Origin: Candidatus Saccharimonadota bacterium
Lineage (GTDB): Bacteria; Patescibacteriota; Saccharimonadia; Saccharimonadales; JAXHMH01
Direction of reading: 5' to 3'
DNA length: 64,000 bases
NCBI GenBank assembly: GCA_034521515.1
Contig: JAXHMH010000002.1
Location: forward strand, 24,379 to 88,378
Shown: piece by piece, positions 4,478 through 42,479 of the stretch
Layout: each line of letters begins with the position of its first letter
Position numbering within the stretch: the first letter of the stretch is position 1
The notes under the pieces: model-generated
The model's input: only the letters and a program-made list of their open reading frames with translations
What the model was told of the DNA's origin: nothing
Database searches by the model: none
Translations under genes and position numbers: made by a program

Positions 4478-4544
4478 GCATATAGTATAGAACGCCGCAG
4501 TATTCTGTGCTACGATGCGTAAGCCGTAAATTTACAATTAAAAA

Positions 4545-4642
4545 ATATCAAGAGAGTGGCAAGGGATCTGACCCGTTGACCCACCAGCAACCTAGCTTTT
4601 TGCAGCCAAGGTGCTACGTTCAGCCCTTTTCGGGGAAGATAT
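4545..4642 (+). promoter_or_regulatory. SAM-I (S-box) riboswitch aptamer upstream of metK
   Basis: ATATCAAGAGAGTGGCAAGGGATCTGACCCGTTGACCCACCAGCAACC...AAGGTGCTAC...GAAGATAT matches the S-box core (AUCAAGAG, AGGGA, GACCCG, AGCAACC, AAGGUGCUA) with P1 ATATC/GATAT; sits 60 nt before metK ATG. Confidence 0.85.
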
Positions 4643-4702
4643 CAGCACAACACGATGCTCCTTTATCGACCCGAATCAGGACAGATTAAAAGGAGTTTTT
4701 TC

Positions 4703-5689
4703 ATGTCTGTAAAAAAATCAATCTATAAAACCGCCGAGTCAGTTAGCCCGGGGCACCCCGACAAACTATGCGATCAAATTTCTGACGCCATACTCGATGC
4801 TTACCTGGCTGAGGATGCCGACGCTCGAGTCGCCGTAGAAACTGTTGGCGGTCACGGCAAAGTTTTTATAACTGGTGAAGTGACTTCATCGGCCAAAGTT
4901 GACGTTGCGCCGATTGTTGAGCGGCTCGCGCCAGGCGTAGAGCTGGAAACACGTATCGTTGCCCAGAGTCCAGAAATCGCCCACGGCGTAGATACCGGCG
5001 GTGCAGGTGACCAAGGCATAATGGTAGGTTACGCATCGTCAGAAACGGACGAACTACTGCCACTGGAAGTCGTGCTAAGCCGCAGATTAAACCAAGCCCT
5101 TTATGAGCGCTTGCCTCACGACGGTAAAACGCAAGTAACCGTCCGCGATGGCGTCATACAGTCAATCGTAGCTAGCTTCCAAAACGCCCCACAACCTGAA
5201 CTCGAATCAGCAGTAAAGTATTGGCTCTCAAGTTCATCAACTATTACCTATGATCTATCAACTATCAATTTACACATTAACCCCGCCGGCGATTGGCACC
5301 AAGGCGGCTTTGACGCCGATGCCGGACTAACCGGCCGCAAACTCGTGGTAGACAACTACGGCCCCAGCGTGCCGATTGGTGGCGGCTGCTTTTCTGGCAA
5401 AGACCCCAGCAAGGTTGATCGTTCCGCCGCCTATATGGCACGCAAAATCGCCGTAGATTACTTGCGGGAGCGTAAAGCCCAAGAAGTGTTCGTGCACCTG
5501 GCATATGCCATAGGCTACAACCAACCACTAGAAGCAACTGTCACTATTGACGGAGCTCAAGAAGTTGTTGAGGGCTATGACCTAACGCCAGCCGGTATCA
5601 TCAAATCGCTCGATCTCAAACGGCCAATCTACGAACAAACCGCCCGCTTCGGCCACTTCGGCCACCCCAACTTTCCTTGGGAAAAATAG
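4703..5689 (+). CDS. metK: S-adenosylmethionine synthetase (compact, 328 aa)
   Basis: MSVKKSIYKTAESVSPGHPDKLCDQISDAILDA...GAGDQGIMVGYA...GGGCFSGKDPSKVDRSAAY...FGHFGHPNFPWEK; start set at ATG 4703 preceded by AAAGGAG. Confidence 0.95.
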   Translation: MSVKKSIYKTAESVSPGHPDKLCDQISDAILDAYLAEDADARVAVETVGGHGKVFITGEVTSSAKVDVAPIVERLAPGVELETRIVAQSPEIAHGVDTGGAGDQGIMVGYASSETDELLPLEVVLSRRLNQALYERLPHDGKTQVTVRDGVIQSIVASFQNAPQPELESAVKYWLSSSSTITYDLSTINLHINPAGDWHQGGFDADAGLTGRKLVVDNYGPSVPIGGGCFSGKDPSKVDRSAAYMARKIAVDYLRERKAQEVFVHLAYAIGYNQPLEATVTIDGAQEVVEGYDLTPAGIIKSLDLKRPIYEQTARFGHFGHPNFPWEK

Positions 5690-5838: not shown

Positions 5839-6267
5839 ATGAGCGAAAACACAGAAACCCCTCAGAAGCACTGGTGGTTGTATGTTTTGAAGCTGGAGCA
5901 GGGCAAGTTTTACGTTGGGATTACTTCTAAAACACCAGAAGAGCGGTTTCAGCAGCATGTTAACGGTTTTCTTGGTGCGCAGTGGACAAAAAAATATAAA
6001 CCAATTGAGCTAACCTACAAAGAGGACCTAGGTAACGTAACACTAGAGCAAGCTAAGCTAGCTGAAAATATGAAAATACGTATGTATATGAATATGTACG
6101 GTGATGAAAACGTACGTGGCGGCGACCTAAACTACAGTGGTAAGTATTTCTACAGGTTTGGGAGATTCCATCGTGATGAGGATTGGCAGATCGTGACTGT
6201 GATCCTTTTCCTATCGATTGTAATAACACTACTTTTGCTGGACAAGTTAGGGCTAGTTAGCTTGTGA
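5839..6267 (+). CDS. GIY-YIG domain protein with C-terminal TM helix
   Basis: WWLYVLKLEQGKFYVGITSKTPEERFQQH resembles the GIY-YIG N-terminal motif; hydrophobic tail IVTVILFLSIVITLLLL. Confidence 0.65.
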   Translation: MSENTETPQKHWWLYVLKLEQGKFYVGITSKTPEERFQQHVNGFLGAQWTKKYKPIELTYKEDLGNVTLEQAKLAENMKIRMYMNMYGDENVRGGDLNYSGKYFYRFGRFHRDEDWQIVTVILFLSIVITLLLLDKLGLVSL

Positions 6268-6358: not shown

Positions 6359-6673
6359 ATGAAGCTTAGAAAACACCGATGGTCACGGGCATACGAATCA
6401 GCCGAGGAAGAGTTGGAACTTTTCTTAGAAAAGCACAACATTCAGGCCGACCGCTGGACCGCCGAGCCGGGCGAAGCAATACCCGGTGAAGCAAGCAAAC
6501 AAGACAAACGGCTATGGTGCGCCGAAGGCACAGTAATATACGCCGTCAACGGCCAGGACATTTCCTTGCAGCCCGGTGACACACTCGATATACCGGCGCA
6601 AATGTACCACGAAGCCCAAACCGGCCTCGGCGGATGTATTTGCTACCAGCACTCCACCGATGCTAAAGCCTAG
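6359..6673 (+). CDS. small cupin-like protein
   Basis: 104 aa; ...GTVIYAVNGQDISLQPGDTLDIPAQMYHEA resembles cupin motif 2 (G-D-x-x-x-I-P-x4-H). Weak, from memory. Confidence 0.4.
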   Translation: MKLRKHRWSRAYESAEEELELFLEKHNIQADRWTAEPGEAIPGEASKQDKRLWCAEGTVIYAVNGQDISLQPGDTLDIPAQMYHEAQTGLGGCICYQHSTDAKA

Positions 6674-6827
6674 AAGTTTGGCAAAAAATCTGGTTGATAT
6701 GAGAGAAACTAGGCTGCAACACTTGTGATAATCATGCATACTTTTAAGTAGGCTTCTAATAAGAAGCTCTGTGTTTACGGCGAGCAGTAAAGACCGTAAA
6801 TATGCACCTAATAAAAGGGGAGGTTTC

Positions 6828-7961
6828 ATGGAATTAACACGTAAGAGCATACAAACTCTGCATAAAAGAACATCCGCCGGGCCTAAACTCAGCATTTACA
6901 TACCGACCCACCCAAAATCCAATAGTGCGTCGATTAACGAGGATAAAACTCGCCTCAAAAACGCCCTAAAAGCTATTGAAAACGACCCAAAATTCGACAA
7001 GCATGCTCATAAAAATATACTTAAGCCGCTTCATGACGTGCTTGATGATACGCAGTTCTGGAAGCACCAAGCTGTCGGGTTGGCACTGTTTGCCGATGCA
7101 AACGGCTTTGAGTTTATGCATTTGCCGCTTGAGCCGACCGAGGCTACGTATATTGATAAAGAGTTTGTCATCAGCCCGCTTATTATTATGCACAGCATAG
7201 CTACTGGGTTTTATGTACTAGACGTTAATTTATCCAGGGTTCGTTTACTAAAATCAGCTCATGGAACATTACATGAGATAGAAGACGCTCAATTACCAGA
7301 ATCATTCCAGGACAGGCTCGCTAACATGGAATATTCCTACGAGCTACAACACCAAGGCGCTCCAAAAGACAGCACTGGTAGTCGCGGTGATTTCCACGGG
7401 CATGAACCCGACGAAGCAATAGCAGACGATATCATAAAGTATTTACGTGATGTAGCTAGAGCAACTGATGCCTACTTATCCGGTCACGACAAACCGTTAT
7501 TACTAGCCGGAACCGAGAATAGAGTGGGTAATTTGCATAAATTTATCCACTACAAGCACACCCTGCCGCATGCTTTAACCGGCAATTTTGAGTCCCACAC
7601 GCCGCAGATGCTGCACGATGCAGCCACAGAAATCATCCAGCAACACCAGCAACATCAACGCGAGGAATTAGTGCAGAACTTGCTAGCAAGCGGCCCAGAA
7701 CACGTGGTCATGGGTCACTCCGAAATAACTGAAGCCGCTGCCGCCGATAGAGTTCAGCGACTGTACTTGCCAATTTTCCGTAATACCGCTGACAACGTAC
7801 GCACCGGCGATGTCCACTCTATCGTCTTGCAACTACCCAAAGCTATCAGCGAACTGGAATCAATGATTCGTTCGGTCATAAACCAAGCCGGCGAGGTGAT
7901 TGCCGTAGAGGTTGATGCCTATAAGGAGCTAGCCCAGCCCAAAGCCCTCTGCCGCTTTTAG
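6828..7961 (+). CDS. conserved hypothetical, resembles bacterial eRF1/Pelota-fold (baeRF-type) family
   Basis: Start at ATG 6828 after GGGGAGG. MELTRKSIQTLHKRTSAGPKLSIYIPTHP...TRLKNALK...DTQFWKHQAVGLALFADANGFEFMHLP...ISPLIIM...GFYVLDVNLSRVRLL follows the pattern I recall for baeRF-like proteins; not verifiable here. Confidence 0.55.
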   Translation: MELTRKSIQTLHKRTSAGPKLSIYIPTHPKSNSASINEDKTRLKNALKAIENDPKFDKHAHKNILKPLHDVLDDTQFWKHQAVGLALFADANGFEFMHLPLEPTEATYIDKEFVISPLIIMHSIATGFYVLDVNLSRVRLLKSAHGTLHEIEDAQLPESFQDRLANMEYSYELQHQGAPKDSTGSRGDFHGHEPDEAIADDIIKYLRDVARATDAYLSGHDKPLLLAGTENRVGNLHKFIHYKHTLPHALTGNFESHTPQMLHDAATEIIQQHQQHQREELVQNLLASGPEHVVMGHSEITEAAAADRVQRLYLPIFRNTADNVRTGDVHSIVLQLPKAISELESMIRSVINQAGEVIAVEVDAYKELAQPKALCRF

Positions 7962-21394: not shown

Positions 21395-24031
21395 TTAGCG
21401 GAGATGGATTACAGTCTCGTCTTCAGGTGGTTGCGGTTTATCGTTTGGGTTGGATGTGCCATCAGGGGGAGACGACTGAGCTCCGTCCTTATTCTTGCGC
21501 TTTCGGCGACGGCGACGCTTTTTCTTAGGTTTTTCCTCGGTATCATTAGTATTTTTATCGGTTTGCGGCGCATCTTTTAGGCCAGTAGCGACTTTAGCGA
21601 GCCGCTTGTTTAAATCTTCTTTACTGAGCGGGGCTTTCGGTTTTGTTGATCCTTCGGATGCTTCTTTCATTTCTGGCTTTTCTAATGAAGGGGTAGGGGG
21701 TTTTGGCGGTGCGCCGGCTTTCTTGGCAGCAGCCTTTTGTTGCTCGGTAGTTAAGTAACGGTCTTTCACAAATATCTCAATCTCATCACGGTCAACCGCA
21801 AACTGTTTACGGCTGTTGTCTATGATTGCAGAGCTATAATCGTCACCGTAATCTGGCAAATTAAGAGTTGTCGCCGAGAAAGCCTGAGCCTTCTCGCCGT
21901 CAATGGTCATACTCAATGCAAAATGCCGGTTATGCATATGAACAAGATCGTACTCTAAAAACTTTGGTTCAAAATAACGTTGCATTATCCGGGCGTCGTC
22001 GGCACTCATCCTAAAGCCAATAATCGAGCCGACGTTACCAAACACGGCGTCTTTTACGCTCAAACTCATCTGAGCTATATACTGGTTAGCGACAGTTAAA
22101 TTCAGACCGTATTTACGAGCCTCTGAAAGAATGGTCGCAAACGAGTCAGTGGCAAAATTTTGAAATTCATCAACATATAGATAAAACGGCAAACGTTCGT
22201 CAAGTGACACATCGGCACGGCTCATAGCGGCCATCTGTATTTTTGTCACCAAAAGTGCTCCAAGTAAGCTGGCATTATCTTCACCAATTAGCCCGCGGCT
22301 TAAGTTCACTATGAGTATCTTACGCTCATCCATAATCTTACGAATACTAAAGCTACTTTTTGGCTGGCCGATGATATTACGTACAATCGGGTTAGCCGTA
22401 AAGGCTCCAACCTTATTAAGTACCGGAGCTACAGCTTCAGCGGCAAATTTATCGTTCCAACTAGCAAACTCTACCAGCCAAAAATTCCGTACTACCGGAT
22501 CTTCTACATATTCCAAAACTTCGGCGCGAAATTTTTTGTCAGTTAGAATACGAGTAATATCCAGCATGGTTGCTTGCGGATAATCAAGTAGAGCCAGCAA
22601 GCTGTAGCGCAAAATATATTCCAGCCGTGGCCCCCAAGATTCAAACATTCTTTTAAGTACACCGATGAGTTCTGAGGTGGTATGCGTCTTAAGGGACTCA
22701 TCATACACTTCCATGGGGTTAAAGGCGATAGGGAAGTTTGTATCTGCAGGATTAAAGTAAATTACGTCATTGACGCGCTCTGGCGGAATACGTTTTAAGG
22801 TGTTTATAGCATAATCGCCGTGCGGATCAACCACCGCAAAACCGTACGGACTGTAAATATCCGATATAGTTAAGAGCTCGAGCATACCGGACTTACCAAC
22901 ACCGGTTTGACCAATAATGTATATATGACGCCCGCGATCAGACCGCGGCATGCCAAACATTGAATTATGACCGCGAAAATTAGTCACCGCAATCGGGCTA
23001 ACTTCGTCTCTGTTGTTGTCAGATACCAACGGTAGGTTAGCTGGCGGTTCAGCGGTAGTAGCATTGGCCCACAGTATGTTGGGAGTTTCTACGTTGGTAT
23101 GCGGCAGGTGATACAGACTAGCTACTTCCTCGATATTACAAATAAAACCAGTACCCTTAAAGGCTCGTCGTTTGTACAGATCTATCATTTTTTGATCGGC
23201 ACTTAGGTAACTTTGTTTAAAGCCGTTAAGATAGGTCGTATTAAATTGCTTAAAGCTTGCAGTAATCGCCTGGAAGCGCATTTTTGCCTGGCTGGTTGTC
23301 CCGTGGCCGCGATACACTACTCGCAAAGCAACGTCGTATGCCAGTTTCTGGCTCTTTTCTTCAGCCGCACTTGCTTTGGTAGTCTCATGCTCGGCTAGTT
23401 TGGCTGCCTGTCCGCCAGCTTTCGCCTCTGGGGGCGCCCACAAAGCAGAGGCTATTCCTGATGAGCCGCCACTAGCACCCTTGTTGCGAATACCGCCGGC
23501 AAACTTTTCACTTTTTTTATGCCAAGTCTCCGAGGCGGGTCTTAACACTACTTGCAGCCATGCTTCTTCATCTTCGTCGAATTGGGCTAAGGCAGCTGTA
23601 ATTGCTGCTAAGGGGTCTACCTCAAAACTCGGAAAGGTTTTAATCGGCAGCGCAGAGTTTGCAGATAGTTTTAATTCACCAACCAACTGGGCGGTAAAGT
23701 GAGCACCATCATCTTTAGAATAATCTTCAACTTCAGATATATGAACCGTTGGGTACTGTGCGTAAATCTGTTCCTCGACAAAGCTTTTTAGGTGATCAGG
23801 CACCCAAACATAAAAACCGATTCGCTTGGCTTTTACTGCAATTTCAAAACTAACTCGTTCGTGTACCGGCTTTTTAAACAAGCTTTTTTGCGCCGATGTT
23901 AAAAGGCCGTGCAGGCTGGCAAACATCTGCTCGGCTGCCAGCTCTTTCTTCTCGTTTGTTCGAGGCACTTGTAGCAGTAATACTGAACCAACGTTTACAG
24001 AAGCAGGGTCTTGCTGTTTCTTCAAAATCAT
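21395..24031 (-). CDS. VirD4/TraD/TraG-like (T4SS coupling-protein-type, HerA/FtsK-superfamily) ATPase with polybasic tail
   Basis: Walker A IIGQTGVGKSG, Walker B LPFYLYVDEFQNF, ...ARKYGLNLTVANQY; large N-terminal domain; tail EEKPKKKRRRRRKRKNK. Confidence 0.8.
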   Translation of the reverse strand: MILKKQQDPASVNVGSVLLLQVPRTNEKKELAAEQMFASLHGLLTSAQKSLFKKPVHERVSFEIAVKAKRIGFYVWVPDHLKSFVEEQIYAQYPTVHISEVEDYSKDDGAHFTAQLVGELKLSANSALPIKTFPSFEVDPLAAITAALAQFDEDEEAWLQVVLRPASETWHKKSEKFAGGIRNKGASGGSSGIASALWAPPEAKAGGQAAKLAEHETTKASAAEEKSQKLAYDVALRVVYRGHGTTSQAKMRFQAITASFKQFNTTYLNGFKQSYLSADQKMIDLYKRRAFKGTGFICNIEEVASLYHLPHTNVETPNILWANATTAEPPANLPLVSDNNRDEVSPIAVTNFRGHNSMFGMPRSDRGRHIYIIGQTGVGKSGMLELLTISDIYSPYGFAVVDPHGDYAINTLKRIPPERVNDVIYFNPADTNFPIAFNPMEVYDESLKTHTTSELIGVLKRMFESWGPRLEYILRYSLLALLDYPQATMLDITRILTDKKFRAEVLEYVEDPVVRNFWLVEFASWNDKFAAEAVAPVLNKVGAFTANPIVRNIIGQPKSSFSIRKIMDERKILIVNLSRGLIGEDNASLLGALLVTKIQMAAMSRADVSLDERLPFYLYVDEFQNFATDSFATILSEARKYGLNLTVANQYIAQMSLSVKDAVFGNVGSIIGFRMSADDARIMQRYFEPKFLEYDLVHMHNRHFALSMTIDGEKAQAFSATTLNLPDYGDDYSSAIIDNSRKQFAVDRDEIEIFVKDRYLTTEQQKAAAKKAGAPPKPPTPSLEKPEMKEASEGSTKPKAPLSKEDLNKRLAKVATGLKDAPQTDKNTNDTEEKPKKKRRRRRKRKNKDGAQSSPPDGTSNPNDKPQPPEDETVIHLR

Positions 24032-27502: not shown

Positions 27503-27545
27503 GCTCTTACTCTTAGAGTAAGTAACCTGATCACTTTTTGCATAA

Positions 27546-28082
27546 AAGCCAGCACTCCATCCTCCCCACTTTTGGCAGCAAAAGTAGGCAAAACTGCTGG
27601 GCTGCGTTTTTGCCTTGATGTATCTGTTGATACAAAACAGGCTCGCTGGTTCGTCTCTTTTTGCGGCGCAGCAGGCTTTGCCTGGTGGCAGGCAAAAAGG
27701 GAATGCTGTCGGAACTCCCCCTCACCATCTCTTTCGAGAGTGGTGAGGGGTCAGACAGCTCTCGCGCCCAAGGGCGCCTCTTTTACACAACATCTAGTCA
27801 GGACTTTGCAGAGCCAGACCCCGGAATGGCTTCGCCATTCCGGTTAATTATGTGTTCTTTAAAAAGAACACAACTAATGAGGGTCACATCTGAAAAACAG
27901 AAGCGAAGGAGTGCTGGTTGGACGAGTCAAGCCGGTAGTCAAGCTCCGCCAAAGTAACTAGAAAAACTGGCGGAGCCGCTTGTCGTTCTGCCGGCGCGGC
28001 CAACCAGTGCTGCTTCGTACTCTTGTTTTTTCAGTCGTGACGAGCTTTTTGGTTACTTTTTAGCGGACAAAAAGTAACAGGG
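27546..28082 (+). ncRNA. hairpin-dense repeat element, copy A (candidate large structured RNA; family unidentified)
   Basis: Paralog of 42629-43158; at least 8 hairpins plus an 18-bp long-range helix; compensatory differences between copies; G-U pairs valid only on + strand. As a repeat this is certain; as an RNA gene it is inference. Confidence 0.55.
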
Positions 28083-28127
28083 TATTTGATTCTTCCGGCC
28101 TTCGCAGTAGTAATGCTAATTCCCAGT

Positions 28128-28152
28128 ATTTCCAAGACCTGGTCTTGGAAAT
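28128..28152. repeat. 25-nt perfect palindrome atttccaagacc-t-ggtcttggaaat
   Basis: 12-bp arms; the same element (central base complemented) recurs at 31027-31050. Confidence 0.9.
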
Positions 28153-28272: not shown

Positions 28273-28285
28273 ATTTTACAGGCTA

Positions 28286-28456
28286 TTAACGCTGCGTTGT
28301 TAGGTGATAGCCAAAACAAACAGGGCATTTGTAAACGCGGGTAGGCTTTTTAAGTTCTCGGGTAGGGTTGATCCGTTTTAGCGCGGCCTGAGCATCAGCG
28401 TCGCTACCAAACCTCCGCTTGCGCTTACACGCCACCTTTTCATTAATACTCGCCAT
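28286..28456 (-). CDS. small zinc-ribbon-like protein (56 aa; below ORF-track cutoff)
   Basis: Own translation: MASINEKVACKRKRRFGSDADAQAALKRINPTRELKKPTRVYKCPVCFGYHLTTQR; C..C/CPVC pairs. Confidence 0.45.
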   Translation of the reverse strand: MASINEKVACKRKRRFGSDADAQAALKRINPTRELKKPTRVYKCPVCFGYHLTTQR

Positions 28457-28595
28457 GAGCCTATTCTACCTCACTACTATCTCAAATATCGTACACGTAC
28501 GTATGAAAGTGCCGTAAATTTTATGAACTAAAAATCACTAGGGAAATTGGACGAGATATGTGTTTTTAGTATTAATTGAGTGCTACTATAGATAC

Positions 28596-28799
28596 ATGGA
28601 TGACCAACAATTAGACGATTTGAAACAATTTATCGAAGCTACTGTCTCCCAGACGGAGGCGCGGCTTGAGCAGAGAATCGATGACCTTAGCAAAGATATG
28701 CATAGCGGGTTTTCCGGGGTAGGCGAGGCAATCGAACAAATACACACAGAGGCTGCTACGCATGAGCGGCGCCTGACAAACCTCGAAAAAACTGCCTAG
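28596..28799 (+). CDS. small hypothetical coiled-coil protein
   Basis: MDDQQLDDLKQFIEATVSQTEARLEQRIDDLSKDMH...; 67 aa. Confidence 0.4.
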   Translation: MDDQQLDDLKQFIEATVSQTEARLEQRIDDLSKDMHSGFSGVGEAIEQIHTEAATHERRLTNLEKTA

Positions 28800-29019
28800 A
28801 ACTTGGCAAAGGGTATATACTCAACGTAGTCGTGTAGGTACTTTGGGAATATCCTGACTTCTACTTACAGGCTTATCTAACTACCTAGTCTTCCTTCTAC
28901 GCTTAGGCCAACGGAGGATGGCTCTCGTCACCACAAACGTGACGCTACAATTACAATATCCGATCGCAACCGCGGACACTGGTTGCACCTCTTTTATTAC
29001 ACGTAATTGGTAGTTAGAT

Positions 29020-29298
29020 ATGAATAATTCGATTCTTATTAACGAGCGGGTTGAGGTCATTACTGTGTTTCGGACGCACAGCAGTGAAGGCAGTATTTGC
29101 GTGCCCGCCAAAATGAAATACAAGAACCAGGAAATCTTGTTTACCGAGCTGGGGCTGCGGCACCCAACTTCCAAGGGTAAACGCATGGTTCATGTGTTTG
29201 ATATGAGTGATGGCGCCAACGATTACCGGCTAGAGTTCGACGCCGAGATGCTCACCTGGACACTAATTGCCATACTGGAGGGCCACTATGCAGCTTGA
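29020..29298 (+). CDS. small hypothetical protein translationally coupled to the Y-family polymerase
   Basis: 92 aa; its last 11 nt overlap the polymerase start (ATG 29288). Confidence 0.55.
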   Translation: MNNSILINERVEVITVFRTHSSEGSICVPAKMKYKNQEILFTELGLRHPTSKGKRMVHVFDMSDGANDYRLEFDAEMLTWTLIAILEGHYAA

Positions 29299-30544
29299 TA
29301 TCAGCCGGGAAGAAGCTCAGATTATGCACATCGATCTCAACAGTGCCTTTGCCACCACCGAGCAACAAGCGCACCCGTCCTTGCGCGGCAAACCAATTGG
29401 CGTGACTAACCGCATCTCCAAATACTGCTGCGTAATTGCAGCCTCTTACGAGGCCAAAGCACTAGGCGTAAAAGTCGGCATGCGGCTAGATGAAGCTAGA
29501 GCACTCATACCAGACTTCATTATTCTAGAAACCGACCCGCCCAAATACCACCACGTCTACCAAAAACTGGCCGCCATCATGAAGGATTATTCGCCGGATG
29601 TGCAAATGAAAAGTATTGATGAGGGAGTGATTGATTTTCATGGCACTAGAGGCGTCATTAACCCACGCCCGCTTAAAGACATTGGGCATGAAATAAAGCG
29701 GCGAGTCCGGCAAGAAATCGGCAGCTGGATGCGCATCAACGTCGGAATTGGATCGAACCGGTTTTTGGCCAAAACAGCAGCTGGACTACACAAACCCGAC
29801 GGTCTAGACCTGATAGACCACCGCAACCTGCACCAGGTATACGCTGACATGAAACTGACCGATCTAACCGGCATTGCCTCGCACTACGAGGCCCGGCTCA
29901 ATGCGGCCGGTATTTACACGCCGCTGCAGTTTTTGGACGCGCCAGCCGATGTGCTGCGGCGTTTAGTGTTCCATAGCGTGGTAGGGGAGGATTGGTACCA
30001 GCGGTTACGGGGTTACGAGGTAGACAATGTGCCAACCAAGCTCGGCAACGTTGGCCGGCAATACGTGCTGGACACTCGCACGGCTGACGAGAGCGTCATT
30101 TTGCCCCGGTTCCAGTATTTGTGTGACACCACCGGCAAAAAGCTGCGATACAACAACGTAGACGCTCGCGGAGTGCTAGTCTGGGCAACTTTCCAATCAG
30201 GCGACAGTTGGTACCAGCGTAAAATGTTTAAGACCACGTTTTATACCGACCGTGACATCTACCAGCGAGCGCTCTTTTTATTCAACCAGCGCCCCAAGCA
30301 CATGATAATCAGCGCCATGGGCATTACCTGCTACATGCTCACACCAAGCAGCCGCAGCCAGTCTAGCTTGTTTGAATCAGTCAACCGTGAGGAGTGGCTA
30401 ACTACTGCTGTGGATGAGATAAACAATCGCTACGGCACATTCATGATTGCTGCCGCTAACTCGCTGGAAGGCAAGAACGTCGTCAAGCAAAAAATACCGT
30501 TTGGCGGCACCAAATATTTCGAACTGCTCCTAAAACGCGCTTAG
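29288..30544 (+). CDS. Y-family DNA polymerase (DinB/UmuC-like)
   Basis: IMHIDLNSAFATTEQQ...LRGKPIGV...YEAKALGVKVGM...SIDEGVIDF...IGSNRFLAKTAAGLHKPDG. Confidence 0.9.
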   Translation: MQLDISREEAQIMHIDLNSAFATTEQQAHPSLRGKPIGVTNRISKYCCVIAASYEAKALGVKVGMRLDEARALIPDFIILETDPPKYHHVYQKLAAIMKDYSPDVQMKSIDEGVIDFHGTRGVINPRPLKDIGHEIKRRVRQEIGSWMRINVGIGSNRFLAKTAAGLHKPDGLDLIDHRNLHQVYADMKLTDLTGIASHYEARLNAAGIYTPLQFLDAPADVLRRLVFHSVVGEDWYQRLRGYEVDNVPTKLGNVGRQYVLDTRTADESVILPRFQYLCDTTGKKLRYNNVDARGVLVWATFQSGDSWYQRKMFKTTFYTDRDIYQRALFLFNQRPKHMIISAMGITCYMLTPSSRSQSSLFESVNREEWLTTAVDEINNRYGTFMIAAANSLEGKNVVKQKIPFGGTKYFELLLKRA

Positions 30545-30572
30545 TCGTAAAAAGTTAGAGTAAACTAGGAGC

Positions 30573-31001
30573 ATGAAGATACACATGGTAACCGTTGGCA
30601 AGCCAAAACTCGCCTATGCAGCATCTGGTTGGGATGAGTATTTAGGCCGTCTACAGCACTATCACCAAGTGCGCGTCACGCACCTCGCCGATAAGAATAA
30701 TAATGCGGATAGCTTGCTGGCCGCAGCCGGCAACGCGTACAAAATTGCGCTCGTCATTGACGGCAAACAATTTACCAGCAAGGAGCTGGCGGAATTTCTA
30801 GACAAACGCGCGCTGAATGGCAGGGAAGTCTGCCTACTCATCGGCGGACCGGACGGCCTGCAACCAGAGGTAATCGATGCCGCAGATTTCCAAATGGGTC
30901 TATCCCGCATGACATTCCCGCATGACCTGGCAATGGTCATCCTCCTGGAAGCCCTCTACCGCGCAAGCACCGTCAGCGCCGGCCAGCCTTATCATAAATA
31001 A
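30573..31001 (+). CDS. rlmH: 23S rRNA (pseudouridine1915-N3)-methyltransferase (SPOUT)
   Basis: MKIHMVTVGKPKLAYAASGWDEYLGRL...LLIGGPDGL...LSRMTFPHDLAMVILLEALYRASTVSAGQPYHK. Confidence 0.9.
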   Translation: MKIHMVTVGKPKLAYAASGWDEYLGRLQHYHQVRVTHLADKNNNADSLLAAAGNAYKIALVIDGKQFTSKELAEFLDKRALNGREVCLLIGGPDGLQPEVIDAADFQMGLSRMTFPHDLAMVILLEALYRASTVSAGQPYHK

Positions 31002-31026
31002 AACATACTATATAACATTATCCTTG

Positions 31027-31050
31027 TTTCCAAGACCAGGTCTTGGAAAT
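31027..31050. repeat. second copy of the ttccaagacc/ggtcttggaa palindrome
   Basis: tttccaagacc-a-ggtcttggaaat, 26 nt after the rlmH stop. Confidence 0.9.
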
Positions 31051-31097
31051 GCCTTGGAAATGCACTATGTTGGAGAGTATTTATTTGTTATAAATAA

Positions 31098-31126
31098 GAA
31101 AAGAGCCTCCTTGGAGGCTCTTTTTA
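31098..31126. terminator. bidirectional intrinsic terminator
   Basis: aaaagagcctccttggaggctcttttt: GC-rich stem flanked by an A-run and a T-run, between convergent rlmH and 31145..31414. Confidence 0.65.
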
Positions 31127-31144
31127 GTAGGACACTAATCGTTT

Positions 31145-31414
31145 TTATTCGTTTAGCGCTTCGTCTATCTCTGACGTGTCCAATTCGCTATCGACATCAA
31201 TGTCTTTTAAGTAGCTCTCGGCCTCTTCCAGATCCTGACTATCGCTCACCTCAGGAGCAGGCGTTCGCTCTTGACTGGTTACTTCCGGCGTCGATTCCGT
31301 GCCGTTTTCCTGAGCATCGTATACTCGCCAGCCTGCAAATGCTACTACGGCGACTACTACTAATATAGCGATGATAGCTATAGCGGAAAAACCTTGTTGA
31401 TTATTCCTCATCAT
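31145..31414 (-). CDS. small membrane-anchored acidic protein (pilin-like N-terminus lacking Glu5)
   Basis: MMRNNQQGFSAIAIIAILVVVAVVAFAGW... then acidic tail; start at ATGATG 31414, 14-nt overlap with the upstream gene. Confidence 0.5.
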   Translation of the reverse strand: MMRNNQQGFSAIAIIAILVVVAVVAFAGWRVYDAQENGTESTPEVTSQERTPAPEVSDSQDLEEAESYLKDIDVDSELDTSEIDEALNE

Positions 31415-32054
31415 TTTCAACCTCCACTTCATCTTCACTTTCTTCAGAATTCGCCTCTTGTTCCTGAACAGCTTCTGCACGCAAATCGCTTATCAAGGCG
31501 ACCAATTCTGTCCGATAGGCCCTGAGACTTTCTCGTGCGTCGGCAATCGCTTCGCGATATCCCGCTAATTGATCACCAACATTTTGGTTCTCGCAGTCTA
31601 GCTCAAATGTGTATTCACTGACAACTTGTAGCGATGCCTCTGCGTTAGCCTTTGCTGATTCTATATTCAACAGATGTGTTTCGTAGTTATCCACTGTCAG
31701 CTGATTTGACTCGTAAAAACCTTGAACTCGTTCATACACCGTGTCGATTGATGTCTTAACCGATGTTGCGCCAGTGGCGAGTCGCGGCATGACCCGTACT
31801 AGATTCTGTTGACGACGCTCACATACTTCTTGTTGAATAGTTGCTCTTCTTTGTGCAACCTCTTGTTGGATCTGAGCCTTGCGTTCTTCAACGTCAGGCT
31901 TGGGCGGCTGTGCCCGTTCACGAGCCTCAGCGGCGGTCGCTTGGGCTTGTTCGCGCTTTTGCGATATATCAGGGCGGCCTTGTGCAAACACAATAGACTG
32001 CACACCAGCAACAACGAAAACCCCGACTATCAACAGTCCGAGGTACTTTTTCAT
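31401..32054 (-). CDS. secreted coiled-coil protein with acidic tail
   Basis: Signal-peptide-like MKKYLGLLIVGVFVVAGVQSIVFAQG, helical Q/E/R-rich body, C-terminal EESEDEVEVENDEE. Confidence 0.6.
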   Translation of the reverse strand: MKKYLGLLIVGVFVVAGVQSIVFAQGRPDISQKREQAQATAAEARERAQPPKPDVEERKAQIQQEVAQRRATIQQEVCERRQQNLVRVMPRLATGATSVKTSIDTVYERVQGFYESNQLTVDNYETHLLNIESAKANAEASLQVVSEYTFELDCENQNVGDQLAGYREAIADARESLRAYRTELVALISDLRAEAVQEQEANSEESEDEVEVENDEE

Positions 32055-32242
32055 ACTTATTCCTTTACTATTACATTATAAATGCAACTCCATATTAGTT
32101 CCGTAAGCAGGCGATTGCAACCCGCTCATGGTTGGCGTACTCGGTACTTCAGAAATTGCAGAAATTGCGCAGTGAATATAGACTCTGTGGCTTGCAGGGT
32201 TTGCACGTTTTTTGCAAGGTCTAACCTTGCAAACCTGGCATC

Positions 32243-32327
32243 CCCGCATGATCTAGCGATGGTCATACTACTAGAGGCCATCTACCGCGGCAGCACTATA
32301 TCTGCTGGTCAGCCGTATCATAAATAG
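32243..32327 (+). pseudogene. detached second copy of the rlmH 3' end (last 28 codons plus stop)
   Basis: Encodes PHDLAMVILLEAIYRGSTISAGQPYHK* versus PHDLAMVILLEALYRASTVSAGQPYHK* at 30918-31001. By my codon comparison there are 12 synonymous and 3 replacement codon differences. No upstream rlmH body. Confidence 0.8.
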
Positions 32328-32346
32328 CTTTTTCGCCAACCAATCT

Positions 32347-32375
32347 AAAAACCCCACGCGAAAGGTGGGGTTTTT
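32347..32375. terminator. bidirectional intrinsic terminator-like hairpin
   Basis: aaaaaccccacgcgaaaggtggggttttt. Confidence 0.55.
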
Positions 32376-32378
32376 AGA

Positions 32379-32398
32379 TTGGTGACCTCACGGAGAAT
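32379..32398. repeat. 20-nt duplicate of the tRNA-Glu 3' end
   Basis: ttggtgacctcacggagaat at 32379-32398 is identical to 32523-32542. Confidence 0.9.
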
Positions 32399-32523
32399 AT
32401 TGAAATATAATCCGCCCGTTTGTCGCTAAAGCGACGGGGGATTAGCGAACTCTGGGGTTCGATTCGTCCGCCAGTCGACGGACCACCAAACAAAAACACC
32501 CACTCGGGGTGGGTGACTTTGTT

Positions 32524-32598
32524 TGGTGACCTCACGGAGAATCGAACTCCGATTTTCAGGATGAGAACCTGATGTCCTAACCGTTAGACGATGAGGCC
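32524..32598 (-). tRNA. tRNA-Glu (anticodon CUC), CCA encoded
   Basis: Minus strand GGCCTCATCGTCTAACGGTTAGGACATCAGG-TTCTCAT-CCTGAAAATCGGAGTTCGATTCTCCGTGAGGTCACCA. Confidence 0.9.
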
Positions 32599-41317: not shown

Positions 41318-41612
41318 GAATCTTTTGGACTCGCTTTGAAGTACAGATTATCACTCATGATAACCTGTGGGGTCTTAAAGGGGTTAGTTTGTTTTAGAAC
41401 GCTTTTTGCCGATAGAGCAAAGTGGAGGGTAACAACTTTGATACAGAATCCGAAGACTCCGCTATGGCGCGCTCTAAAACAATCTAACAACATAGTTCTA
41501 ACTTTTGCTGTTAGAATTGGGGGTATAAGGTACGTAAAATCCTATTTAGGACTTACGAATTGCTATTCTAGCAAGAATGTTGCCTTATGTCAATACTAAA
41601 AAACATTATTTT

Positions 41613-42479
41613 ATGAAAATCAAGAAGCTTACGCTAAAATCTACCGAATTTCCAGAGTGTCTAAAGAACATACCCAGTCCGCCAAAGCAAATTTTTGTCC
41701 GCGGCAACCCATCTGTACTTCTTCAGAATAACCCTGTCTTAACAGTTGTCGGTACGCGTAAGGTAAGCCCTTACGGGCGTGAGGTAACTGATAAGTTCGT
41801 CCGAGAAGTCGCCTCAAAAGGCGTGACCATTGTGAGCGGCCTAGCGCTAGGGGTGGATATTTTGGCTCATAGAGCTGCTTTATCCGTCGGAGGTAGTACT
41901 ATTGCAGTATTACCCTGCAGCCTGGATTCAATATATCCAAGCTCTCACTACCATGATGCTATGAAAATAGTAGAGCAGGGCGGAGCGCTTATAAGTGAGT
42001 ACCCTGAAGGCACCGAGCCCTTTAAGACAAACTTTATTGAACGAAACCGACTGGTTTCTGGACTAGGTGATGGGGTGCTCATTACAGAGGCTGCTGAAAA
42101 GTCCGGAACTCTGCACACTGCCAACTTTGCACTAGAGCAGGGCAAAACTGTCATGGCAATTCCAGGCAATATTACCAGCCCGCTCAGCAAGGGCACCAAC
42201 AACCTCATTAAATCTGGCGCACTACCAATTACCGATAGCTCAGATATACTATTTGCTCTGGGAGTTAAAGAAAACAAAGCCAACGAGCAAGTAGAGTTAT
42301 TCGGTGGCGACCAAGGCGAAACAAATATATTAAACCTCATTGCTTCCGGCATAACTGATGCTTCCGAACTGCAGCGCCAAAGTGATTTAAACCCAGGGGA
42401 GTTCAACCAAACGATAACCATGCTAGAGATAAACGGCCGCATACGTTCCCTAGGCGCCGGCCACTGGACTCTTAGCTAG
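41613..42479 (+). CDS. dprA: DNA processing protein A (Smf)
   Basis: MKIKKLTLKSTEFPECLKNIPSPPKQIFVRGN...TVVGTRKVSPYG...IVSGLALGVDILAHRAAL...GTLHTANFALEQGKTVMAIPG; start moved to ATG 41613. Confidence 0.9.
   Translation: MKIKKLTLKSTEFPECLKNIPSPPKQIFVRGNPSVLLQNNPVLTVVGTRKVSPYGREVTDKFVREVASKGVTIVSGLALGVDILAHRAALSVGGSTIAVLPCSLDSIYPSSHYHDAMKIVEQGGALISEYPEGTEPFKTNFIERNRLVSGLGDGVLITEAAEKSGTLHTANFALEQGKTVMAIPGNITSPLSKGTNNLIKSGALPITDSSDILFALGVKENKANEQVELFGGDQGETNILNLIASGITDASELQRQSDLNPGEFNQTITMLEINGRIRSLGAGHWTLS

Follow-up and report, generated by a model that had tools for sequence, protein, structure and literature searches.

What is a second 3' end of rlmH doing 1.3 kb downstream of an intact rlmH gene? 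The question is raised by a 64-kb stretch of DNA (called the window throughout) from a metagenome-assembled genome (MAG) of Candidatus Saccharibacteria (order Saccharimonadales), whose proteins match NCBI entries with U5K77 locus tags on a 706-kb contig exactly and all of whose close relatives are likewise Saccharimonadales MAGs. The gene itself is complete (30573-31001, plus strand, 142 aa, with a full-length match to Pfam SPOUT_MTase at E=7.7e-40), and the detached copy of its end lies beyond an insert of ~1.33 kb. We propose that DNA entered through the end of rlmH and that the two copies come from different lineages, a reading to which we assign a probability of about 0.8. The locus is a well-preserved insertion scar of a familiar kind, best read as having the geometry of the e14 element of Escherichia coli, here in an under-studied phylum. 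Saccharibacteria have tiny genomes whose gene gain and loss are poorly understood, and the locus provides a dated, sequence-level example, in which the intact gene is accompanied by a dead stump that preserves sequence from a different lineage, and a relative shows the empty site.

The last 28 codons of rlmH and its TAA (copy A1, 30918-31001, plus strand) recur in copy A2 (32226-32327, plus strand), where homology is strong over 32244-32327 (28 codons plus TAG) and weak from 32226. A repeat search returned the two as a 91-nt pair in direct orientation, with 77% identity and a spacing of 1326 nt. A2 matches positions 122-154 of the SPOUT_MTase profile (E=1.3e-8), and an nhmmer DNA profile built on 36 rlmH genes (35 from distinct relatives plus the window's own) matches 32226-32328 with E=1.7e-24. 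Judged by these matches, A2 is genuine rlmH sequence. Upstream of 32226 neither the DNA profile nor local alignment detects rlmH homology, in agreement with an earlier reading of the letters alone (the sequence-only reading), which had described the detached copy as lacking a gene body. A2 lies inside an 81-codon open reading frame (ORF, 32082-32327) that the NCBI annotation (PGAP) names RlmH / 23S rRNA methyltransferase RlmH. Its likeness to rlmH is limited to the last ~34 codons, and its first 54 residues have no match among 5.8 billion proteins except their own NCBI entry. The ORF begins MQLHI...GW, which is faintly RlmH-like (hmmsearch E ~0.02); this N-terminal match is unproven and has no counterpart at the DNA level, and a remnant gene body upstream of A2 was rejected as an explanation. 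For annotation, the ORF should be regarded as a fragment and not as a second methyltransferase, and its public name is misleading.

How the two copies came to differ can be read from their codons. They are separated by 12 synonymous and three replacement codons (L>I, A>G and V>I) and by the stop, TAA versus TAG, exactly the count that the sequence-only reading had given. When 19 random substitutions were simulated, a mean of ~12 replacement codons was obtained, and three or fewer in 0 of 20,000 runs. So few replacements indicate that A1 and A2 diverged almost wholly as the ends of working genes, in different lineages, which bears out what had been suggested from the letters. The I and the G that A2 acquired by the first two replacements occur in 0 of 120 relatives, in which these positions are invariant, and this fits a short period of decay of A2 after its detachment; by its sequence A2 is a pseudogene fragment. 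The two copies share identical runs at both edges of the repeat, the 9-mer CCCGCATGA at the left and the 11-mer TATCATAAATA at the right, the latter (30990-31000 and 32316-32326) containing the octamer TATCATAA.

The sequence to the right of A2 suggests where the fragment belongs. Eleven nucleotides after its stop codon begins a hairpin, hp1 (32339-32383), with a perfect 19-bp stem, and the right arm of this hairpin passes into 20 nt copied from the 3' end of tRNA-Glu, from the T-loop to CCA (32379-32398, minus strand, 100% identical to 32523-32542); the sequence-only reading had missed this continuation. Hp1 is the ancestral-type terminator between rlmH and the tRNA-Glu end: the same architecture is found at the empty site of a relative (L046, described below), and the terminator part of a covariance model, R1, matches it. 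The tRNA-end copies of two further relatives (L024 and L034) end at the same boundary, between GAAT and A. A2 is thus part of a junction composed of rlmH end, terminator and tRNA-Glu end, and its contiguity with hp1 and the tRNA-end copy suggests that it still sits on the ancestral rlmH/tRNA-Glu junction.

The junction continues into a conserved module of ~130 nt (32399-32528, plus strand). It consists of a promoter-like site, with the -35 element within the tRNA-end copy and TATAAT at 32406-32411, followed by ~85 nt whose last letters are GGGGTTCGATTC; behind these come a short hairpin and a terminator hairpin, hp2 (32484-32528), that shares an arm with the tRNA end. The module is present in three distant genomes (window 32379-32530, L034 7694-7852, L024 6450-6614), among which both hairpins show compensatory changes, and it folds with a z-score of -4.8. 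On the opposite strand, the T-arm of tRNA-Glu together with the terminator is likewise matched by a covariance model, which gives the module the look of a mirrored, degenerate 3' half of a tRNA. Rfam holds no match for it. Possible identities are a small RNA or the remnant of an old tRNA; since three distant genomes have both the module and the tRNA-end repeat, it is old and possibly functional.

An empty site and alternative cargo, both of which the sequence-only reading had proposed to look for in related genomes, are indeed present in relatives. In the closest sampled relative (L046, RlmH 87% identical) rlmH ends in TAA and is followed by a 32-nt hairpin and then directly by tRNA-Glu; on its sequence this is the empty site. 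Among relatives that retain the order rlmH ... tRNA-Glu - kinase - regulator, the gap between rlmH and the tRNA measures 32 nt in L046, 0.86 kb in L019, 1.4 kb in L034, 2.0 kb in L022, 2.1 kb in L047, 2.3 kb in L014, 2.5 kb in L023 and 5.9 kb in L026. In the other relatives, then, unrelated DNA of 0.9-5.9 kb occupies the interval, and the contents of the longer gaps are also unrelated to each other. We infer that adjacency of rlmH and tRNA-Glu(CUC) is the ancestral state. None of the relatives checked has the two-copy arrangement or the window's cargo at rlmH/tRNA-Glu. The full rlmH of L024 has the same tRNA-end copy 22 nt behind it, and then the same module of ~100 nt and hairpin; from A2 rightwards the window is colinear with this locus. 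Synteny with relatives is preserved on both flanks of the insert, which shows that the event was local. As a separate observation, the gap in L034 is filled by 1.26 kb (6440-7690) without ORFs of at least 60 codons; this DNA has no Rfam match and no similarity to the window's non-coding stretch.

The scars that other relatives carry at this interval are of a different type. In L026, 20 nt of its own tRNA-Glu end are exactly repeated, the two copies lying 4.6 kb apart around an ABC-transporter/VanY segment. In L024, truncated copies of the tRNA-Glu end are followed by an island that contains PLD-like, XRE-like, TraD/VirD4-like and GNAT genes. No integrase was found in the scanned segments of either. 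Going by the repeated sequences, the direct-repeat scars in these two relatives belong to the 3' end of tRNA-Glu and not to that of rlmH. The suggestion that rlmH is an insertion hot spot holds, therefore, only as far as the interval is concerned, which is variable among relatives; rlmH as a recurrent attachment site finds no such backing. What can be marked as a place of gene-content turnover in this clade is the rlmH/tRNA-Glu junction.

These observations can be assembled into a simple sequence of events. At the start, rlmH and tRNA-Glu would have stood tail to tail with a shared terminator hairpin between them. The chromosome would have recombined once, within the last ~28-34 codons of rlmH, with an incoming molecule bearing a diverged end of this gene of its own. 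Such an exchange would yield an intact gene, an insert and a displaced fragment in direct orientation, with one copy completing rlmH and the other left as a dead fragment beside the old terminator and the tRNA-Glu side. In the geometry that we favour, the incoming DNA would have brought A1 and A2 would be the chromosome's original end, with a crossover close to the left end of the repeat, in the neighbourhood of the CCCGCATGA common to both copies. This direction, which corresponds to that of e14, is put forward tentatively, our confidence in it being somewhat short of even. The responsible enzyme would no longer be encoded in the window, and the insert would for that reason now be fixed and immobile. 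In the present state rlmH would end at a new hairpin and terminator, with the cargo genes convergent toward it and A2 decaying.

The closest precedent is e14, which is flanked by icd and, at its far end, by the C-terminal pseudogene icdC, the two differing mainly by synonymous changes (PMC13626634). As with e14/phage 21 in E. coli icd, the insertion in the window is placed within the 3' end of a protein gene with a housekeeping role, whose last few dozen codons are found again at the far end of the insert, and the differences are mostly synonymous with few conservative replacements. Both systems keep a complete gene and reduce the other copy to a C-terminal pseudogene. The window's insert is bounded by two direct copies that diverged as functional coding sequence (12 synonymous versus three replacement codons), and an unoccupied site can be pointed to in L046, although the RlmH of that relative is only 87% identical. 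The likeness does not extend to the element itself: e14 is ~15 kb long, has its own integrase and still excises, whereas the insert measures 1.3 kb and no integrase was found in 37 large ORFs.

Which copy is the immigrant is less clear, since the tests based on composition and those based on distance conflict. In favour of the e14-like direction, with A1 incoming and A2 native, the synonymous difference at identical residues from L046 is 0.505 for the gene body, 0.50 for A2 and 0.32 for A1, and a tail value as low as that of A1 was reached in only 1.8% of comparably diverged pairs. Further in its favour, divergence is much greater in the six codons to the left of the CCCGCATGA run than in the 28 on the other side of it (Fisher p=0.01), as expected if these six were element arm rather than rlmH. 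When the 84-nt copies were compared with 35 relatives for their nearest sequences, A2 stood about as far from A1 (64/84 identities) as from the other genomes (52-69/84); with synonymous sites near saturation, neither copy can be placed among the relatives. An exact-pattern scan of metagenome contigs returned no match for hp1 plus the tRNA end, nor for a 20-mer specific to A2, and viral contigs scanned for the tRNA-Glu core gave none either.

Several observations weigh against an e14-like insertion. The G+C content at third codon positions (G+C3) of A1 (0.70) is like that of the rlmH body (0.59) and unlike that of the cargo genes (0.41-0.46; binomial p=0.007 against a cargo-like composition), which fits a native A1. 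Averaged over all relatives, A1 behaves as tails typically do and A2 lies a little too far away, and near saturation of synonymous sites makes comparisons over 81 nt weak. No second rlmH 3' end occurs in any other fetched locus that holds rlmH, so the targeting of rlmH amounts to one event. No circular or element form was found, and the cargo pair was seen nowhere else next to rlmH. Finally, no integrase, serine recombinase or transposase was detected in the insert or in the 37 large ORFs scanned in the window (the two insert genes plus 35 others; the islands of L024 and L026 were scanned as well).

The same insertion may have run in the opposite direction, with the geometry of the staphylococcal cassette chromosome (SCC): the intact rlmH including A1 would be native, and A2 a passenger from the rlmH of a former host, captured by imprecise excision and brought in by recombination at the very 3' end of the gene, within the TATCATAAATA common to both copies. 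The composition of A1 just described speaks for this, as does that of A2 (0.48), which is cargo-like; in relatives the G+C3 of the tail tracks that of the whole gene, a deficit like that of A2 being seen in ~3/35. The intact rlmH also stands in a conserved gene order, and both copies end in the identical 11-mer containing TATCATAA, but this identity is expected anyway from the Tyr-His-Lys-stop codons. Against it, two steps would be needed, capture and then re-integration, the scanned ORFs include no ccr-type or other recombinase, the GA dinucleotide found 6 bp upstream of the SCC core is absent from A1 and A2, and A1 is unexpectedly close to L046 relative to the gene body. We consider this direction unlikely. 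Somewhat less likely still is a patch import, in which the rlmH of a diverged relative, perhaps together with o92-dinB, and its downstream cargo would have replaced the native genes and left the native rlmH 3' stump, one end having been joined by homology and the other illegitimately inside native rlmH. A functional rlmH would have been retained throughout, the presence of DprA makes DNA uptake plausible, identical palindromes bracket the o92-dinB-rlmH block, and o92, dinB and rlmH have in common a G+C3 of ~0.6 against 0.453 +/- 0.053 for the window. This last argument does not survive a control with the relatives' loci (L001-L051), in which the G+C3 of rlmH and of the IMS polymerase exceeds that of their neighbours by means of +0.04 and +0.08, the excess rising to +0.10 to +0.14 in relatives with the same dinB-rlmH pair (L021, L022 and L024). 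The enrichment is therefore a property of these genes and not a mark of import, and G+C3 was rejected as such a mark; for the same reason, the G/C-rich third positions from which the sequence-only reading argued say nothing on the foreignness of either copy, as most relatives have the same enrichment. Recombination efficiency falls with sequence divergence, so homologous anchoring at 77% identity would be very inefficient, and no donor-like arrangement of rlmH followed by the cargo occurs among the cargo contexts examined. Within the window, we note separately, the excess over rlmH and the adjacent Y-family polymerase (29020-31001) reaches +0.17.

Two further explanations would dispense with insertion altogether. 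The second copy could be an assembly artefact, contigs of two related populations having been joined at conserved sequence; the source is a MAG, and a Logan contig of the region stops inside the tRNA, a typical branching point. That contig, produced separately from run SRR26473340, is however 100% identical to the window over 28284-32595, including every junction, while it may share reads with the MAG. Logan contigs are built with k=31, and the longest exact matches between the copies, 11 nt at the rlmH ends and 20 nt at the tRNA ends, are shorter than this, which makes a chimeric join unlikely; both junctions moreover lie in unique sequence. We regard an artefact as extremely improbable. The remaining alternative, a local tandem duplication of the rlmH end that diverged in place, or an 81-codon ORF that is a functional short gene, is the least credible of those considered here. 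The repeats are direct, and the ORF is uninterrupted and begins in a way faintly reminiscent of the RlmH N-terminus, but a non-functional copy would have gathered ~12 replacement codons rather than three, and a functional one is hard to reconcile with an N-terminal part of 54 residues that has no homologue and no DNA-profile homology, or with two substitutions at positions that do not vary among 120 relatives.

Insertion through the rlmH end, our preferred explanation, invites comparison with SCC and SCCmec elements, whose target is the same gene and the same region, the 3' end of rlmH (orfX). The 8-bp motif of SCC attachment (att) sites, TATCATAA, is present in both window copies, at both boundaries, and elements that are bounded by att sites and lack ccr are known in staphylococci. 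The motif is shared because RlmH ends in the conserved Tyr-His-Lys-stop. SCC att sites also have a central GA, located 6 bp before the core and with degenerate inverted half-sites on either side, whereas the upstream hexamers of the window copies are CAGCCT and CAGCCG, with no GA crossover dinucleotide at that distance. The scanned ORFs include no CcrAB or CcrC, SCC duplicates ~15-18 bp against 85 nt of diverged coding sequence in the window, and the phyla are unrelated. An SCC-type element was rejected, there being no ccr gene and no GA dinucleotide and TATCATAA being forced by the protein's C-terminus. A bolder proposal would make the 3' end of rlmH a true attachment site in Saccharibacteria for small cassettes without a recombinase, mobilized by an enzyme encoded elsewhere, as an independent counterpart of SCC in another phylum that shares the TATCATAA region and in which two palindromes, one close to either end of the insert (31027-31049 and 32212-32232), would serve as recognition hairpins; we hold this to be very doubtful. 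Were rlmH to turn out to be targeted repeatedly, its likeness to the SCCmec case would be noteworthy, but the data show one event only.

Islands at tRNA 3' ends offer a second comparison, given that tRNA-Glu is the right partner of the junction and a 20-nt repeat of its 3' end lies 144 nt away. The relatives carry the same kind of mark, around 4.6 kb of DNA in L026 and as truncated tRNA-end copies before the island of L024. In the window, however, these 20-nt repeats (32379-32398 and 32523-32542) bound only 124 bp, the cargo being bounded by the rlmH-end repeats instead, and no tyrosine integrase lies by the tRNA, nor in the scanned segments of L024 and L026. Homology-facilitated illegitimate recombination after natural transformation would also leave an intact imported gene beside a resident stump and needs no recombinase, but it requires a well-matched anchor, and the visible homology is 77% over ~90 nt.

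The insert consists of a palindrome, a terminator, a two-gene operon and the upstream region of this operon. The palindrome, the terminator and two minus-strand genes for acidic secreted or membrane proteins had all been recognised from the letters and were recovered here. The perfect palindrome TTTCCAAGACC-A-GGTCTTGGAAA (31027-31049) is followed by a tandem 11-mer (31042-31063), and a G+C-rich hairpin with T-runs on both strands (31099-31124) is the likely terminator for both the cargo operon and rlmH. The small cargo gene (31145-31414, minus strand) encodes 89 aa with one hydrophobic helix and an acidic tail (isoelectric point, pI, 4.05). The large one (31401-32054, minus strand), which overlaps it by 14 nt, encodes 217 aa with a signal-like hydrophobic segment at the N-terminus, a long helical, charged middle and an acidic tail (pI 4.6). 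Neither protein is assigned to any Pfam or NCBIfam family or has a recombinase or resolvase domain in these databases, consistent with the earlier remark that the insert has no recombinase.

Homologues of the large cargo protein form 37 clusters, the top identity being 78%. The pair is conserved as a unit in Saccharimonadia, with the large gene always first, the small gene second and the two overlapping in relatives. Seven further contigs place it in six other distinct genomic contexts, in none of which does it stand beside rlmH or tRNA-Glu. From this distribution the cargo looks like an ordinary envelope gene pair that moved, and not like classic island cargo. The earlier idea of a decayed or recombinase-less cargo island is thus upheld as regards the insertion, by the adjacency in L046, and the lack of a recombinase; the cargo, a conserved gene pair found in six other contexts, is not of the typical island kind.

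The region upstream of the large cargo gene (32055-32242) ends in a hairpin that abuts the rlmH homology. This hairpin, TTGCAAGGT-CTA-ACCTTGCAA (32212-32232), adjoins the start of A2 and is a weaker relative of a 24-nt palindrome, TTTCCAAGACC-N-GGTCTTGGAAA, two identical copies of which bracket o56-o79-o92-dinB-rlmH. In the whole window the palindrome is found only at 31027-31049 and 28128-28152, against a chance expectation of 0.01 matches, and it was not found in the relatives' loci L001-L051. The palindromes could be a repetitive extragenic palindromic (REP)-like element, a transcript-end hairpin or a recombination site. No Rfam match was obtained in the insert, in the 125-bp module or in two long non-coding stretches.

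The surroundings of the insert are otherwise orderly. To the left, the gene order is DUF3048 - histidine kinase - response regulator - o92 - IMS polymerase - rlmH, which is common to many relatives, so that intact rlmH occupies its conserved position directly after the o92 and dinB-like genes; ~1.5 kb of largely non-coding DNA separates the response regulator gene from o92. Within it, between the response-regulator gene and the first palindrome, ~630 nt (27503-28130) contain many G+C-rich hairpins but no plausible ORF; at gathering thresholds, Rfam gave no match to them. To the right of rlmH, 1.5 kb lead to the intact tRNA-Glu (CUC) gene (32524-32598, minus strand; detected by ARAGORN, Rfam tRNA score 61.5 bits), a PAS histidine kinase and a response regulator.

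A few features elsewhere in the window deserve mention. An 878-aa TrwB/TraD/VirD4-like ATPase is encoded at 21395-24031 (minus strand), between gltX and the DUF3048 gene, and a similar protein of 886 aa is found in L024 (7736-10396), inside the island after rlmH. The DprA gene lies at 41577-42479. A small GIY-YIG protein (5839-6267) has as its neighbour a protein of 396 aa (6771-7961) whose domain is of the bacterial archaeo-eukaryotic release-factor-like (baeRF) type. Finally, a SAM riboswitch (Rfam RF00162, 51.5 bits) at 4542-4645 stands directly upstream of the S-adenosylmethionine synthetase gene (4655-5689).

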